Shown here: in pieces, positions 1 through 7,006 of the stretch
Layout: every line of letters begins with the position of its first letter
Numbering within the stretch: position 1 is the first letter of the stretch
Source: a virus
Lineage: Duplodnaviria > Heunggongvirae > Uroviricota > Caudoviricetes
IMG/VR virus record: IMGVR_UViG_3300029508_000035
Direction: 5' to 3' (one strand)
DNA: 7,006 bases
Position numbers and translations under genes: made by a program
The notes under the pieces: model-generated
What the model was told of the DNA's origin: nothing
The model's input: only the letters and a program-made list of their open reading frames with translations
The model's database searches: none

Positions 1-472
1 CCAGGTTAAGGCAGAAATTACGAAAAATTTTCAGCAGCAATTAGATGAAGAAAAGCAACGCTCTCAGATGCTGGAGAAGCAGCTTTACGATTCTATGATT
101 GGCGGTAGTTTTGCGGGTTCAAAATATAGTGCCGATAAAATTGCGATCCCGGCAGATTTATTACAAGCCCGCTTCGGGCAGGCATTCAAAGTGGAAGAAG
201 GGAGGATCGTTGCTTATGACGCTTCCGGCAACAAAATTTATTCCCGCGCGAAGCCTGGCGAACTGGCGCAGTTTGATGAGGCGCTGGAGTTCCTTGTCGA
301 AAATTACCCTCAGAAAGACTACATCCTGAAAGCCAGTGGCAACAATGGCGGCGGCTCCCGTCCGACACAGCATGATATTGGTCAGAAAACGATGAAACGC
401 TCTGCTTTTGATGCACTGGATGTTGCAGGTAAGCAAAACGCATTGAAAGACGGTATCACAATCGTTGATTAA
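1..472 (+). CDS. Phage head morphogenesis protein, putative scaffolding protein (C-terminal part; 5' end lies outside the window)
   Basis: Reading frame is open from the window edge (codons begin at position 2: QVKAEITKNFQQQLDEEKQRSQ...) through the stop TAA at 470-472. Coiled-coil-like, charged N-terminal part and a Gly-rich linker (GNNGGGS). It sits directly upstream of the major capsid gene, where P22-type modules carry the scaffold gene. The function is inferred from position only. Confidence 0.5.
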   Translation, partial: QVKAEITKNFQQQLDEEKQRSQMLEKQLYDSMIGGSFAGSKYSADKIAIPADLLQARFGQAFKVEEGRIVAYDASGNKIYSRAKPGELAQFDEALEFLVENYPQKDYILKASGNNGGGSRPTQHDIGQKTMKRSAFDALDVAGKQNALKDGITIVD

Positions 473-570
473 CACATTTGTCAGCTTCCGGATGGGAGCT
501 GGTGTCAGGGCTGGATAGCTCATTACTCCATCTATTCACAATTACGCAAATTTTTAAGGAATATTTAATT

Positions 571-1710
571 ATGGCTGGAAATACCCTGACCGGGTTGATC
601 CCGACTATTTATACCGCCCTGGATGTTGTATCCCGTGAGCAGGTAGGTTTTATCCCTGCGGTAGCAAAAAACGCAAAAGCTGACGCCGCAGCAAAAGATC
701 AGACGGTAACCGCGCCAGTTGCGCCTGAGGCGAAAACCGAAGATATCGTACCGGGGCCGTCAGCTCCGAATACCGGTGATCAAAATATTGGCACTGTTGA
801 TGTAAAAATTACTAAATCCAAAATGGCACCGGTTAAATGGAATGGTGAAGAACAACTGGCTCTTGGCCCTTCAGGGACTTACAACACCATTCTGGCTGAT
901 CAGTTCAAGCAGGCTTTTCGCGCCCTTGCAAACGAGGTTGAGGCTGATCTTGGTGCGTTGTATTTCGGTGCTTCCCGCGCCGTGGGAACCGCAGGGACAA
1001 CGCCGTTTGGTGTTAAAGATGATCTTTCTGATGCTGCTCTGGCTCGTCAGGTTCTGGAGGATAACGGCGCACCGACAACCGATCTGCAGATGGTGCTTGG
1101 CTCCACTGCCATTGCTAATTTGCGCGGAAAACAGTCTGTACTGTTTAAAGTGAATGAATCCGGCACTGAACAGCTACTGCGTGAGGGCGTGTTGGGGCGT
1201 CTGGAGGGATTCAATATTCACAGTTCGGCAGGTGTGAAACGAGCGCCAAAGGTTGCTGCAACTGGTTATCTCGTGAATGGAGAGAAAAAAGAAGGCGATG
1301 TTCTTATTTCCATTGATACTGGTTCGGGGAGTATTTCTGCAGGTCAGATTGTTACGTTCGCTGGTGATCCGAATCAGTATGTTGTGGCAGCAGCGACCAG
1401 CAATCTGATTACTCTTGCAGCGCCCGGACTGCGTCAGGATCTGGCCGATGATACTGCCATCACAGTTGTTGGGGCCTTTACGGCAAATATGGCGTTTGAT
1501 CGCAACGCGTTTCTGCTGGCATCCCGTACTCCGGCAATGCCGGAAGGTGGCGATAATGCTGATGATGTAATGAATGTTACGGACCCGATTTCAGGGATTA
1601 CGTTCCAGATTGCACTGTATCGTCAGTATCGCCAGGTGCGCTATGAAGTTGGACTGGCATGGGGTGTTTCATCAGTGAAGCCGGCACATGGTTGTCTGAT
1701 TCTTGGTTAA
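571..1710 (+). CDS. Major capsid (coat) protein, HK97-fold, P22 gp5 coat-like family
   Basis: 379-aa ORF starting at ATG 571, preceded by TAAGGA at 555-560. The track ORF 478..1710 begins at a TTG with no RBS, so I take 571 as the true start. From memory, motifs resemble P22 coat protein: FRALANEVEADL (cf. P22 ARKLANNVELKV) and GQIVTFAGD (cf. P22 GDKISFAGV). A strong terminator follows immediately, as is typical for the most highly expressed head gene. Confidence 0.8.
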   Translation: MAGNTLTGLIPTIYTALDVVSREQVGFIPAVAKNAKADAAAKDQTVTAPVAPEAKTEDIVPGPSAPNTGDQNIGTVDVKITKSKMAPVKWNGEEQLALGPSGTYNTILADQFKQAFRALANEVEADLGALYFGASRAVGTAGTTPFGVKDDLSDAALARQVLEDNGAPTTDLQMVLGSTAIANLRGKQSVLFKVNESGTEQLLREGVLGRLEGFNIHSSAGVKRAPKVAATGYLVNGEKKEGDVLISIDTGSGSISAGQIVTFAGDPNQYVVAAATSNLITLAAPGLRQDLADDTAITVVGAFTANMAFDRNAFLLASRTPAMPEGGDNADDVMNVTDPISGITFQIALYRQYRQVRYEVGLAWGVSSVKPAHGCLILG

Positions 1711-1720
1711 ACATTCAAAC

Positions 1721-1740
1721 GGGGCTTCGGCCCCATTTTT
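1721..1740 (+). terminator. Intrinsic (rho-independent) terminator or attenuator downstream of the capsid gene
   Basis: GGGGC-TTCG-GCCCC hairpin (5-bp GC stem 1721-1725/1730-1734 with a UUCG tetraloop) followed by ATTTTT at 1735-1740, 11 nt after the capsid stop codon. Confidence 0.6.
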
Positions 1741-1752
1741 AATGGGGGGCAT

Positions 1753-1929
1753 ATGGCCGGATTAACTAAAGAGCAAAGAGCACAGCGTGAAGCCGCACAA
1801 AAAACGCAAATTGAGTTAGTGGTTATGGTGACCGATTATCAGATGTTTCCCGGCGCACCAACTATCGCTAATGTTCATCCTGATGAAGTTGACAACTGGA
1901 AGGCTATGGGCTGGAAAACTCAGGAGTAA
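1753..1929 (+). CDS. Small hypothetical phage protein (58 aa), not in the supplied ORF track
   Basis: ATG at 1753 preceded by a GGGGGG Shine-Dalgarno-like run (1744-1749); stop TAA at 1927-1929, only 3 nt before the next gene's ATG at 1933. Translation: MAGLTKEQRAQREAAQKTQIELVVMVTDYQMFPGAPTIANVHPDEVDNWKAMGWKTQE. Same strand and packing as its neighbours. No family recognised. Confidence 0.5.
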   Translation: MAGLTKEQRAQREAAQKTQIELVVMVTDYQMFPGAPTIANVHPDEVDNWKAMGWKTQE

Positions 1930-1932
1930 CAC

Positions 1933-2328
1933 ATGATCACTTACGTGACCTGTGATGACGTTGATAATGCGTTTGGGAACGCCTGGACGAGTGAGAACGC
2001 TAAAAATAAAGCTGTTTTAATGGCTAATGCCTGGCTTAATGGCTTCAACCTGAAAATTAACCCATCCCGTATTCCGGAAGAGGTAAAACTTGCGGGAGCA
2101 TATGCAGCCAGAATTGCCTCATTCGGTAAGTTGTTTCAGCAGAAAAATGATTCTGGCGTTGTTATCAGTAAAGCCGTGTCGGCTGACGGGGTCAGTGTAT
2201 CGAAATCATTTTCTGAGTTGCCAGCAAACAGCACTGCATTGCTTGAACCCGATTTACAGCTTGCGATAGCACTGCTGAAACCGTACGGACTTAGTCGCTC
2301 ACAAGTCAGGGTTGTGAGGGGGGGATAA
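1933..2328 (+). CDS. Putative head-tail connector / head completion protein (gp6-like position)
   Basis: 131-aa ORF with AGGAG at 1922-1926 before ATG 1933. First of four ~125-130-aa genes between the capsid and major tail genes, the position occupied by head-tail joining proteins in lambda/HK97-type modules. Its stop overlaps the next start (TAATG at 2326-2330). Function is inferred from position and size. Confidence 0.5.
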   Translation: MITYVTCDDVDNAFGNAWTSENAKNKAVLMANAWLNGFNLKINPSRIPEEVKLAGAYAARIASFGKLFQQKNDSGVVISKAVSADGVSVSKSFSELPANSTALLEPDLQLAIALLKPYGLSRSQVRVVRGG

Positions 2329-2711
2329 TGGGGCTTCGTGAAGAGATTCAGTCAGAGGTTGCCGCTGCTTTTGATGAGGATTTAGCGGACGCCGTGAGTG
2401 ATTTTTCTGGTTCTTACGTTACGCACCGGCACTGGGATCCTGTGACGGAAACTGGCGGCGAATCCACCGCAATCTATACCGGGCGAGGCGTGTTGACACG
2501 TTATAAGCTGGGCAGAATTGATGGGATTAATATTTTGCATGGTGACCTTAAATTAACCGCTCTGGTATGCGAGGTTACGGATAAACCAGCTGTCGACCAT
2601 ATTATTGAGATTTATGATCCTGTATCAAGGCAGTTACAACGATACGAGGTAATTACAGCAAGTGTAGATCCTTCCGCATCAGTTTACTCTATCCAGTTAA
2701 GGAGAGCGTAA
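2328..2711 (+). CDS. Putative head-tail adaptor / head closure (neck) protein
   Basis: 127-aa ORF, translationally coupled to the upstream gene (TAATG overlap) and directly abutting the downstream gene (stop 2709-2711, next ATG 2712). Function assigned by synteny only. Confidence 0.45.
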   Translation: MGLREEIQSEVAAAFDEDLADAVSDFSGSYVTHRHWDPVTETGGESTAIYTGRGVLTRYKLGRIDGINILHGDLKLTALVCEVTDKPAVDHIIEIYDPVSRQLQRYEVITASVDPSASVYSIQLRRA

Positions 2712-3092
2712 ATGGCAAAGGCATGGGATATAGAACCGTCAATATTTGCCGGGATGATTGAGGAAGATGTAGGGCTGAAGATTCGCTACATCGCTATTCA
2801 GATTCTTACTGCTATTGATATTGCTGCTCCGGTTGATACCGGACGTTTCAGAAATAACAACCTGGTGTCGTTACAGCATCCCGATTTTGGTATATCTGAT
2901 AACGTGGATCCGAACGGTACGATTGCTGTTCAGCGTGGGATCGGGGTTATTTCGAAAGCTGCAAATTACGGAGTTATTTATATCCAGAATAACCTTCCTT
3001 ATGCAGAGGCTCTTGAAAACGGTCATTCACAACAAGCGCCAACTGGCGTGTATGCCAACGCTTTTCATGGTGTTTTACAGGCTTACAAATGA
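2712..3092 (+). CDS. HK97 gp10-like head-tail joining / tail component protein
   Basis: 126-aa ORF containing a PVDTGRFRNN motif, which from memory resembles the conserved DTGRLR signature of the HK97 gp10 family. Overlaps the next gene by 4 nt (ATGA at 3089-3092). Confidence 0.55.
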   Translation: MAKAWDIEPSIFAGMIEEDVGLKIRYIAIQILTAIDIAAPVDTGRFRNNNLVSLQHPDFGISDNVDPNGTIAVQRGIGVISKAANYGVIYIQNNLPYAEALENGHSQQAPTGVYANAFHGVLQAYK

Positions 3093-3481
3093 CGTTTACT
3101 GAAATCAGAAATACGGTTATTTCCAGAATGACGGCACAGACGATTATTGATGGAAAAGACGTATTGTATCCGAACGCGCCAACGTTCGATCCTTCCGGTA
3201 AGTTAATCTGGGCGCGGTTAAGTAATATTCCCGGGCAGGCTGGAGTTAATGAAATTGGCGCGGGGCCGATTGTTTATCGCACGGGGATAATCATTATTCA
3301 GTTATTTGTCCCCGCAGGTTCTGGTTCAAAACTCATTACTGAGACAGCCGATAAATTGCGGGAACTGTTTGAGTTTCAGGATGACGATCGTCTCAGTTAC
3401 CAGGCTGTTTCCTCAATAGCCGTTGGCGAAAAGAATGGCTGGTTCCAGCTTAATCTTCAAATTCCATATCGCGCGCTCTAG
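3089..3481 (+). CDS. Putative tail terminator / tail completion protein (gpU/gpZ-like position)
   Basis: 130-aa ORF immediately upstream of the major tail protein gene, coupled by an ATGA overlap. Contains a beta-strand-rich hydrophobic core (GIIIIQLFVP). Function is inferred from position. Confidence 0.45.
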   Translation: MTFTEIRNTVISRMTAQTIIDGKDVLYPNAPTFDPSGKLIWARLSNIPGQAGVNEIGAGPIVYRTGIIIIQLFVPAGSGSKLITETADKLRELFEFQDDDRLSYQAVSSIAVGEKNGWFQLNLQIPYRAL

Positions 3482-3507
3482 CGCAATTAATGACATAGGA
3501 GGCTCCT

Positions 3508-4470
3508 GTGAGTTCAGGTGCAAAGGTTATCTCGGCATTTATCCGGGAGACGGTTGCAGGCACTACGCCAGCAAGTGGTGACTGGAGTTTATTAAAACGC
3601 ACAAGCTGGGGAGTAAAACCCACCCAGAATAAAGGCGAAAATAATGAGATTGGTGGCTCCCGGATGGCTCAGGGGGCGACGCCTGGCACTGTGGATGTCG
3701 GCGGTGATGTTGGTACCAAATTTCGCTGGGGTCAACATGATGATTTTCTTGCATCCTGTTTCGGCGCGGAATGGTCAGGCGATTCTCTGACAATGGGGAA
3801 TGAGCGAATAACATTTTCTCTGGCGACCTATGCGTCCGATGTCGGAATTGCCTCTGTCGTCAGAGGAGCGCAGGTTGGCTCATGGAAAATGCAGATCCCT
3901 AACGACGGCGATATTACAGCGACCGTAACCTTTGCCGGACTGGACTGGGAATCAAAGGCCGATGATACGAATTTTATCAAAGGCGAACCTGTGGATAGTG
4001 CAGGAAAGCTACGTTATTCGTTTAAGGAGGTTTCAGCAGTAAGCCTGAATGGTGTTGCCGGAGGTAACGGTTTTTGTATCGACAGTTTTGATATTCAGTT
4101 CGATAACAAACTCCAGACACAGCGTTGTATCGGGACTGGCTCGCCTTATGCAGGAGCAAATATTCCGACTACTTTTACACCGTCCGGTACGGTGACGCTT
4201 TCATGGTCTAAAGCCGCGTGGGAAATCTGGAGTAAAACACTGACTGGAGAAACAGTTCCGTTCAGCTTCACGCTTTCGAATGGAGAGGGGGCATACACTT
4301 TCAGTTTCCCGAAGGTTCAGGTGTCAGGTGAATGGCCTGATGGGGGTAATAGCGACATTATCCAGGTTCAATTGAGCATTACCGCAGCAGATGAAGCACC
4401 TACGATAACCAGAAAAAAAAATTCCCCGGCTGCCGTGATCGCAAAAGCCAGTGCTGAGGCGATTAGTTGA
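3508..4470 (+). CDS. Major tail (tube) protein
   Basis: 320-aa ORF with GTG start at 3508 preceded by AGGAGG (3497-3502). It lies between the neck genes and the G/GT chaperone pair, the canonical position of the major tail protein. Gly/Thr/Ser-rich, beta-type composition. Stop TGA at 4468-4470. Confidence 0.65.
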   Translation: MSSGAKVISAFIRETVAGTTPASGDWSLLKRTSWGVKPTQNKGENNEIGGSRMAQGATPGTVDVGGDVGTKFRWGQHDDFLASCFGAEWSGDSLTMGNERITFSLATYASDVGIASVVRGAQVGSWKMQIPNDGDITATVTFAGLDWESKADDTNFIKGEPVDSAGKLRYSFKEVSAVSLNGVAGGNGFCIDSFDIQFDNKLQTQRCIGTGSPYAGANIPTTFTPSGTVTLSWSKAAWEIWSKTLTGETVPFSFTLSNGEGAYTFSFPKVQVSGEWPDGGNSDIIQVQLSITAADEAPTITRKKNSPAAVIAKASAEAIS

Positions 4471-4518
4471 TTTTCCGTTATTCCTCCTGTGGTACTGCCC
4501 TACAGGGGGACGCATTGA

Positions 4519-4980
4519 ATGAGGTTATGGATGTTTATTCTTAATCAGAAAATTATCATTGGTGGAGAACGCTGGTTTACGCCAATGAAGGACTTAAAAC
4601 CTGTAGACGGGTTAAAACTGTTGGTGGCAAGCAGCGATAACGATCAGTATCGCTCCCGTAATGCATTAATCCGTCGCCACATTGAGAAAATGGATGCCAG
4701 TTTGCACGTCGGAACGAAGGAGTTTGATATTTCAAAGGTTTCCGAGGTGGATTCTGTTGATGATTTACTCATTGATAATGCCGCTCGTTATCTGCTGAAA
4801 GACTGGAAAGGGGTTGGTGAACTGGTTAATGGTGTTGAGGTTGCACTGGAATATACGGCAGAACGAGGGATCGCGCTGCTTAAGCAGAATCCAGAGTTGT
4901 ACTGGCAGATCCTTGCAGAAGCAGCCAGCATCGCCCAGGGTAAAGAGCAGCAGAAGCAGGATACGATAAAAAAGCCATAG
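4519..4980 (+). CDS. Tail assembly chaperone, lambda gpG-like
   Basis: 153-aa ORF with ATG 4519 preceded by AGGGGGA (4504-4510). An A_AAA_AAG slippery heptamer lies two codons before its stop, and the -1 frame stays open for a further ~100 codons. This is the lambda G/GT arrangement located just upstream of the tape measure gene. Confidence 0.7.
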   Translation: MRLWMFILNQKIIIGGERWFTPMKDLKPVDGLKLLVASSDNDQYRSRNALIRRHIEKMDASLHVGTKEFDISKVSEVDSVDDLLIDNAARYLLKDWKGVGELVNGVEVALEYTAERGIALLKQNPELYWQILAEAASIAQGKEQQKQDTIKKP

Positions 4981-5288
4981 CTGCCCAGCGGTGGTTATCG
5001 GAGTTCGGGGGAGAAAGGGGGGAAAAGGCAAGATGGAAGCGAGAAAAACTCAGGTTGCCACCGATACCGGAACCAGAAATAGACCCGGTGCTTAAGGAGT
5101 TGTTGTACGCCTATTCGGTAATATCCCGTGCCCGACGTTATGCTGGAATGGCTGGGGTGCCTTTGCCTTTATCTCTGACAGAGATAAATGAATATTTAGC
5201 CACTCATCCGGTATTGATTGAGCGCGATGAATTTGAAGCAGTGATCTTTGCACTGGATGACCAGTATTTTCAGGAGCAGTGTGTGTAG
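4519..5288 (+). CDS. Tail assembly chaperone G-T fusion produced by programmed -1 ribosomal frameshift (lambda gpGT-like)
   Basis: The -1 frame is open from 4944 to the stop TAG at 5286-5288. The slip site A_AAA_AAG at 4968-4974 is in the X_XXY_YYZ register of the G frame. Predicted fusion reads ...DTIKK|AIAAQRWLSEFGGERGEKARWKREKLRLPPIPEPEIDPVLKELLYAYS...QEQCV (~256 aa). The track's free-standing 5055..5288 ORF starts at a TTG with no RBS, so separate initiation is unlikely. Confidence 0.6.
4968..4974 (+). other. Programmed -1 frameshift slippery heptamer A_AAA_AAG
   Basis: Sequence ataAAAAAGcca: codons ATA-AAA-AAG in the G frame give A_AAA_AAG, the same heptamer used by E. coli dnaX. It lies in the 37-nt overlap between the G frame and the open -1 frame. 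Confidence 0.65.
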
Positions 5289-5408
5289 TTGTTAATTACG
5301 TACACTCTGTTACAGAGATGTGATGGTGTCTTTAATTAAATCGATGATGCTCCTGGAGAAAAGCATTGCGTGGCCTCGTAATCGCTATATCTACTATTAT
5401 GTCGCCTG

Positions 5409-5436
5409 AAACCCACTTCGCGGTGGGTTTTTTGTT
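5409..5436 (+). terminator. Intrinsic terminator-like hairpin in the gap between G-T and the tape measure gene
   Basis: AAACCCAC-(TTCGCG)-GTGGGTTT stem-loop (about 8 bp, 5409-5430) followed by a run of T residues (5428-5433). It sits 18 nt before the tape measure ATG and its AGGAG (5440-5444). Confidence 0.5.
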
Positions 5437-5453
5437 GTCAGGAGTTTTAATAA

Positions 5454-6931
5454 ATGGCAGAGCAAACCTCGCGTCTCGCAATAATTATTGATAGCACTGG
5501 AGCGAAAAATAATGCTGACAATCTGACCTCCTCATTAGTCAAAATGACGCAGGCTGGGGAAACTGCTGCAAATAGCGCAGGGAAAGTGACTAAGGCAACA
5601 GAAGATGAGAAGAACGCGCTCGCAAAATTAAAAGCAGCTATTGATCCAGTTGGTGCCGCAATTGATACTGTCGGTCGACGCTATTCTGAATTAAAGAAAT
5701 TTTTCGATAAAGGGCTTATTGATAAAGAAGAATATGAATTTCTTGTCCGTAAACTTAATGAAACCACAGAGGAATTGAGCGGGGTTGCGCAAGCGCAGAG
5801 AGAAGCCGAGAAGGCCGGAAAACTTGCTGCCGCCCAGCAGGAAGCGCAGGCTCAGGCCTTTCAAAGAATGCTGGACAAGATCGACCCTCTGGCTGCGGCG
5901 CTAAGAAATCTTGAACAACAGCATGATGAACTTAATGCTGCGTTTGCATCCGGGAAAATAAATGGTTCTCAGTTTGAGAATTATAGCCGAAAAATACAGG
6001 AAACACGGCGAGAGCTTACCGGAGAGGCTCAGGCAGAGCGAGAAGCAGCAAAAGCGCATGATGAACAGGTTGTTGCTTTGCAACGTCTGATTGCTCAACT
6101 TGATCCTGTCGGAACTGCTTTTAATCGTCTGGTAGAACAACAGAAACAGCTCAATGAAGCAAAAGCTAAGGGGATGCTTTCTCCTGAAATGTATGAGGAG
6201 CTTTCTGGAAAACTTCGTGCTATGCGGAGTGAGCTTGAGGTTACTCAATCACAATTAAGCAAAACCGGAATGTCGGCAAAACAAACGGCTTTTGCTATGC
6301 GCATGTTGCCTGCACAAATGACGGATATTGTTGTTGGGTTGTCCACTGGTCAGTCGCCATTTATGGTGTTAATGCAGCAGGGCGGCCAGCTAAAAGATAT
6401 GTTCGGTGGGATTGGCCCGGCGATCAAAGGTGTAGGTTCTTATGTGCTGGGATTAGTTAATCCTTTTACCCTAGCCGCAGCAGCCGTTGGGGTCTTAGGA
6501 CTGGCTTACTATAAAGGCTCTCAGGAGCAGGACGAATTTAATAAATCTCTTATTCTTACCGGAAATCAGTTGGGGACAACCAGCGGGCAATTGGGCGATA
6601 TAGCTCAACGTGCCGGGAATGCGGCTGATTCGACAACTGGTGCTGCGGCGGCAGTATTAAATCAGCTTGTGCGTTCGGGAAAGGTAGCGAGCAGTTCGCT
6701 GGAGCAAGTGACGACAGCGATAGTAAAAACGAGCGAAGTAACAGGAATATCAACCGAACAACTGGTTAATGACTTCAATGAAATTGCAAAGGATCCTGTC
6801 AGTGCCATATCAAAACTTAATGATCAGTACCATTTTCTGACACTTGCGACTTATAACCAGATTAAGGCGCTACAGGATGAAGGGAACCAGCAGGAGGCCG
6901 CCCGCATTGCGACAGAAGAATACTCATCCTC
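5454..6931 (+). pseudogene. Tail tape measure protein, lambda gpH-like, 5' portion; disrupted by an IS1 insertion at 6931/6932
   Basis: ATG 5454 with AGGAG at 5440-5444. From memory, residues ~275-390 match the conserved N-terminal region of lambda gpH: [39 protein letters not shown] vs lambda [39 protein letters not shown], and [12 protein letters not shown] vs DFNKTLVLSGNQ. The frame runs into IS1 sequence at 6932 and stops at 6951-6953, after only ~493 gpH-like codons, whereas a full tape measure is typically >800 aa. Confidence 0.8.
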
Positions 6932-6954
6932 GGTAATGACTCCAACTTATTGAT
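6932..6954. repeat. IS1 terminal inverted repeat (IRR, 23 bp)
   Basis: GGTAATGACTCCAACTTATTGAT matches the IS1 right inverted repeat as I recall it. It directly abuts the tape measure coding sequence at 6931. Confidence 0.85.
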
Positions 6955-7006
6955 AGTGTTTTATGTTCAGATAATGCCCGATGACTTTGTCATGCAGCTC
7001 CACCGA
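6947..7006 (-). CDS. insB: IS1 transposase InsB, C-terminal fragment (5' part outside the window)
   Basis: The minus-strand frame entering at 7006 translates to [19 protein letters not shown] with stop TAA (complement of 6947-6949), matching the InsB C-terminus as I recall it. Confidence 0.8.

Follow-up and report, generated by a model that had tools for sequence, protein, structure and literature searches.

Disruption of structural genes by insertion sequences (IS) is a well-known route of prophage decay. In phage lambda, amber mutants of gene H, which encodes the tape measure protein gpH, make no tails. Assisted by G/GT, the H protein attaches to a tip complex built on J and serves as the rod around which the tube protein V polymerises (PMC3224144). 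A shortened tape measure gene is also found in the Rac prophage of E. coli K-12 (ydaY, ynaA/tmpR region), where deletion has removed the head genes and the larger part of the tape measure gene, which is cut at nt 935. The stretch of viral DNA analysed here (7,006 nucleotides, IMG/VR record IMGVR_UViG_3300029508_000035, hereafter the window) carries a gene of the same family in the same layout, which is interrupted at position 6932 by the end of an IS1 element; on this point, the sequence-level statements of the initial annotation were all confirmed. By far the best explanation, in our view, is the transposition of IS1 into the tape measure gene of a Rac-type prophage, truncating its product, with tails expected to fail as a result.

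A Rac-type structural module

Positions 1-6931 of the window make up the head-to-tail module of structural genes of a Rac-type lambdoid prophage, whose host is E. coli (or Shigella). The upstream part of this module (1..5453) is detailed in Table 1, and all of its ORFs are open. The ynaA gene of K-12 Rac corresponds to nt 1-935 of this tape measure gene, with 99.8% identity, and the chaperone gene (window 4621-4980) bears the RefSeq name ydaY in all related loci, which together identify the prophage as a Rac-type lambdoid one. In related genomes, the module is located beside trkG, ynaK, pinR, uspF and ompN, the setting expected of the Rac locus (ttcA side; uspF and ompN as neighbours), whereas the window itself contains neither an attachment site nor flanking host DNA. 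The whole of window 1-6931 differs by 4 SNPs, with no indels, from E. coli FDAARGOS_1279, where terminase, portal and lysis genes, trkG and ynaK lie upstream of the module, and where it extends past the tape measure gene to the M/L/K/I/J homologues, a Lom-family gene and genes for tail fibres, the head, tail and tail-fibre set being complete. The visible part of the prophage looks to have been intact until recently, as far as can be judged from such a comparison. The initial annotation had suggested a cryptic prophage remnant, a status that is unproven, given that the visible 6931 nt are undecayed when set against a prophage with a complete structural set.

Table 1. Features of the window and IS-disrupted alleles of the same tape measure gene in other strains (gene nt, position in the tape measure gene).
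Feature	Coordinates	Strand	Basis or remark
DUF6651 C-terminus	within 1..5453	+	part of upstream module
Major head protein	571-1710	+	PHROG
Head-tail adaptor	1933-2328	+	PHROG
Head closure	2328-2711	+	PHROG
Tail completion	2712-3092	+	PHROG
Tail terminator	3089-3481	+	PHROG
Tail tube	3508-4470	+	PHROG; Pfam Phage_tube_2
Tail chaperone G/GT pair	4519-4980, plus -1 frame to 5288	+	PHROG 313; distal -1 frame PHROG 1189
Truncated tape measure ORF	5454..6953	+	493 tape-measure codons + 6 IS1-encoded (VMTPTY) + stop TGA 6951-6953
9 bp adjoining IS1 end, CTCATCCTC	6923..6931	+	intact sequence = CTCATCCTC/AATGATCC (slash, junction site); candidate target-site duplication if insertion simple
Right end of IS1 element (IS1A/IS1B type)	6932..7006	-	100% identity over 75 nt; element extends beyond window
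IS1 terminal inverted repeat IRR	6932-6959		exact match, 28 nt = GGTAATGACTCCAACTTATTGATAGTGT
Last 19 codons + stop of IS1 transposase (InsB part)	6947..7006	-	TAA = complement of 6947-6949
EC2, IS1	gene nt 2647		9-bp duplication AGCAGATAA; simple insertion
ETEC1717, IS1, two copies	gene nt 280 and 1929		duplications AAGAAGAAT and CAGTATTCA; simple insertions
TW01221, IS1	gene nt 2082		no duplication; pinR fragment, ydfK, uspF after IS
LR-48, IS1	gene nt 1936		no duplication; mcrBC after IS
E28, IS3-family element	gene nt 1921		bounds deletion from nt 1921 into gpJ

The tape measure gene lies directly downstream of the tail tube gene and of a -1 frameshift chaperone pair. The chaperone gene ends in ATA AAA AAG CCA TAG, which includes a classic -1 slippery heptamer (A_AAA_AAG, positions 4968-4974). 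From 4968, the -1 frame stays open until a TAG at 5286-5288; the region 4519-5288 looks like a lambda G/GT-type programmed frameshift. RefSeq does not link the two members of the pair, naming one ydaY and the other a hypothetical protein. The spacer that follows (5289-5453), within the late operon, contains a strong, terminator-like hairpin (5408-5431, GAAACCCAC-TTCG-CGGTGGGTTTT and a T-run) 20 nt upstream of the tape measure start. In other strains, this spacer houses an inserted Lom-family gene (ETEC1717) or an IS5 (LR-48), and it may serve as a slot for moron insertion. No non-coding RNA was detected when the window was scanned against Rfam. In TW01221 (L001 4056-5017) and EC2 (L004 4056-5017), both of which carry IS1 in the tape measure gene, the tail tube gene bears a frameshift annotation, unlike the tail tube ORF of the window, which is intact.

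Phage-collection records 99-99.7% identical to the module (hits H54-H63) were also found, under the names Salmonella phage SPF_0923 and Escherichia phage vB_EcoS-xxxR series. The latter are in-silico prophage predictions from clinical E. coli isolates (bioRxiv 10.1101/2022.06.29.498070). Being prophage predictions and not virion isolates, they were rejected as proof that intact relatives form virions.

The interrupted tape measure gene and the IS1 end

The identity of the interrupted gene is clear from several lines of evidence. The ORF matches PHROG 24, tail length tape measure protein (E = 2e-159), and contains the Pfam domain TMP_2 at aa 267-471, with a score of 274.8 bits for a gathering cut-off of 30.2 (E = 5.9e-82). 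In about 700 E. coli genomes, its first 1478 nt are the uninterrupted beginning of a gene of 3234 nt (1077 aa), and IS1 is placed after nt 1478 of this gene, i.e., window 6931. The comparison with related intact prophages, which the initial annotation had proposed, indeed showed homology to the window stopping exactly after CTCATCCTC at 6931, the intact relatives reading ...GAATACTCATCCTC/AATGATCCAGCG... at the junction (slash); an uninterrupted gene would read ...CTCATCCTCAATGATCC... across this site. Also in agreement with that annotation, the gpH-like frame, with about 493 codons upstream of IS1, enters the element at 6932 and ends there as VMTPTY. The partial codon TC, completed by the first G of IS1, still encodes Ser, and the product of 499 aa thus consists of 493 genuine residues followed by six from IS1. 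The break had been placed near gpH residue ~275, close to the BLASTP alignment, in which aa 493 falls at gpH ~278.

The 584 C-terminal residues (54%) are missing from this product. The lost part includes TMP_4 (aa 671-748) and Tape_meas_lam_C (aa 858-932 of the intact homologue), as determined by Pfam; the Pfam scan accordingly found no Tape_meas_lam_C in the 499-aa ORF, an absence which is the truncation itself. What is retained comprises three N-terminal repeats and TMP_2. These repeats, in tandem and of ~70 aa each, occupy window 5616-6248 (aa ~55-265), with a mutual identity of 37-40% and the pattern AxxxLxxxIDPxxxA...G.I....YE.....L.ET..EL.

The other partner of the junction is just as clear. 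The final 75 bases of the window (6932-7006) read GGTAATGACTCCAACTTATTGATAGTGTTTTATGTTCAGATAATGCCCGATGACTTTGTCATGCAGCTCCACCGA, and the earlier placing of the IS1 right inverted repeat at 6932 was borne out, the full 75 nt being identical to the right end of IS1A/IS1B. Used as a megablast query against the 5426 complete genomes of E. coli, this segment matched 9381 records, spread over 4961 of these genomes, many of them at 100% identity and under features annotated as IS1A or IS1B transposase. An exact match of 75 nt that starts at the outermost nucleotide of IS1 rules out a chance resemblance. Translation of the minus strand (6947-7006; 19 residues, ...HYLNIKHYQ*) yielded a sequence identical to the C-terminal end of the IS1A transposase annotated in strain TW01221, and the transposase is thus antisense to the phage late genes. 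These observations concern ~10% of the 768-bp IS1, the integrity and left end of the element lying outside the window.

From a functional point of view, the initial annotation had considered that an interrupted tape measure gene should abolish tail assembly, which is reasonable by analogy with lambda H: the 499-aa fragment, devoid of the C-terminal domains, should be unable to support tail initiation. IS1 polarity may also lower the expression of distal genes, if these are still present. As tail formation requires the tape measure protein to attach to the tail-tip complex and to act as the core for tube polymerisation, a prophage carrying this allele should lack functional tails, and it should yield no infectious particles on its own.

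Insertion, rearrangement or artefact

The initial annotation spoke of an IS1 insertion. That the IS1 end abuts the ORF at 6932 stands; the insertion as such is unproven, the window containing a single junction. The most plausible course of events is that, in a Rac-type prophage, an IS1 copy landed by transposition after nt 1478 of the 3234-nt tape measure gene. Translation now proceeds for six codons into the IS1 inverted repeat and stops, giving a 499-aa product that keeps the N-terminal repeats and TMP_2 and is devoid of the 584 C-terminal residues, including TMP_4 and the lambda-type C-terminal domain. A simple insertion predicts the other IS1 end (...AGTAAGTTGGCAGCATCACC) ~768 bp downstream of 6932, followed by a second CTCATCCTC, then by AATGATCCAGCGCACC... 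and codons 494-1077. If the insertion is indeed simple, CTCATCCTC is the correct prediction of the target-site duplication. The 4 SNPs and the lack of indels upstream are consistent with a recent event, and loss of tail assembly would probably have followed from it.

IS1 might alternatively be the endpoint of a deletion or rearrangement, through adjacent deletion or IS1-IS1 recombination, in which case the remainder of the tape measure gene, along with the tail genes downstream of it, would have been removed or relocated, and the prophage would be a true remnant. Such outcomes have precedents in this very gene. Downstream of IS1 in TW01221 and LR-48, where the element has the same orientation as in the window, the rest of the prophage is missing, pinR fragment, ydfK and uspF following it in the former and mcrBC in the latter, and neither junction displays a target duplication; when a duplication is missing, an adjacent deletion or recombination between IS copies is a common cause (PMC11708052). 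In E28, a deletion from nt 1921 into gpJ is bounded by an IS3-family element, and K-12 Rac retains only the first 935 nt of the gene. By contrast, the rest of the tape measure gene and the tail genes are found downstream of IS1 in EC2 and ETEC1717. Three of the five IS1 junctions elsewhere in the gene are thus simple insertions with 9-bp duplications, and two are without duplication, a ratio that, like the orientation of the comparators, is a rough guide drawn from a biased sample, the comparators having been retrieved with a query that included an IS1 end oriented as in the window. All five new IS1 events recorded in long-term evolution lines displayed duplications and no deletion (PMC11708052), and the visible upstream module, with its 4 SNPs and no indels, is near-pristine. 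We therefore consider a rearrangement a serious possibility, yet a somewhat improbable one. The junction could also be an assembly artefact, a wrong join or a collapse at a repeat, the tape measure gene being really intact. IS1 is indeed a multicopy repeat, the 75-nt end matching 10 places in the median E. coli genome, and the exact junction was present in no other assembly searched. However, the phage sequence ends at the first base of a complete IS1 inverted repeat, which is a signature of transposition and would be rare for a chimeric join, and finished, independent genomes carry genuine IS1 insertions elsewhere in this gene, at five sites. Since the phage sequence stops precisely at the IS1 terminal nucleotide, an artefact is most unlikely, and transposition of IS1 into the gene remains our preferred reading.

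The recurrence of IS in this gene deserves comment. IS1 occurs in it at nt 280, 1478, 1929, 1936, 2082 and 2647, in addition to IS3-family and IS5 events, and an N-terminal fragment is always left. The retained fragments amount to 311 aa in K-12, 493 aa here and ~640-880 aa in other strains. Selection, and not target size, might lie behind such repeated hits, either because knocking out the tail domesticates the prophage or because the N-terminal repeat/TMP_2 fragment has its own function. No other gene of the module offers as large a target, and we give selection very little credence. In addition, three independent IS-bounded breaks fall within 16 nt: IS1 at nt 1929 in ETEC1717, IS1 in the opposite orientation at nt 1936 in LR-48, and the IS3-family element at nt 1921 in E28 (locus records L006 8698-8706, L005 7922-7936, corresponding to gene nt ~1921-1936, and L008 4921). 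This cluster at nt ~1921-1936 could be a local insertion hot spot or a coincidence.

Distribution, annotation and comparison with known systems

The junction was sought in several collections. The 42-nt and 24-nt junction patterns had no match in GTDB species representatives, JGI metagenomes or IMG/VR, an exact-protein look-up returned no record of the 499-aa fusion product, and none of the 5426 complete E. coli genomes covered the junction in one piece. As the exact junction is absent from all collections searched, it looks strain-specific among these genomes, and it could serve as a lineage marker.

In terms of annotation, the ORF 5454-6953 should be labelled as a pseudogene interrupted by IS1, in line with equivalent IS-disrupted alleles already annotated as pseudogenes in RefSeq. 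Prophage predictors should not score this prophage as intact or inducible-infectious, even though the structural module is near-perfect. The relevance of the present locus is limited to annotation and strain biology, and it adds nothing to what is known of prophage decay, tape measure proteins or IS1: the two partners, IS1A/IS1B and the gpH homologue of Rac type, are textbook entities, and only the position of the IS1 end is new.

With respect to lambda, the intact 1077-aa protein aligned with gpH in BLASTP from aa 270 to the C-terminus (E = 8e-78, 29% identity). TMP_2 and Tape_meas_lam_C are common to gpH (853 aa) and the Rac-type protein, and a G/GT-type chaperone pair with a -1 frameshift precedes the tape measure gene in both systems. 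The Rac-type protein is 224 aa longer than gpH, with a ~210-aa N-terminal extension made of the three ~70-aa repeats, which lambda does not have, and the head genes here belong to a P22-like capsid family, by contrast with lambda E. The insertion element itself, over the 75 nt visible, does not differ in any position from the IS1A/IS1B of E. coli and Shigella, with both IRR and the InsB C-terminus present, and the flanking nine-mer CTCATCCTC fits the 9-bp duplications of IS1 elsewhere in the tape measure gene. In the other disrupted alleles (EC2, ETEC1717, TW01221, LR-48, E28 and ETEC6), an IS likewise lies inside or bounds the same gene, which RefSeq treats as a pseudogene, but at nt 280, 1921, 1929, 1936, 2082 or 2647 as opposed to 1478 here, and none of them shares this junction. 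Finally, whereas K-12 Rac was reduced by deletion, the head-to-tail module of the present prophage is complete up to IS1, and its tape measure gene is cut further downstream, at nt 1478, by an IS.
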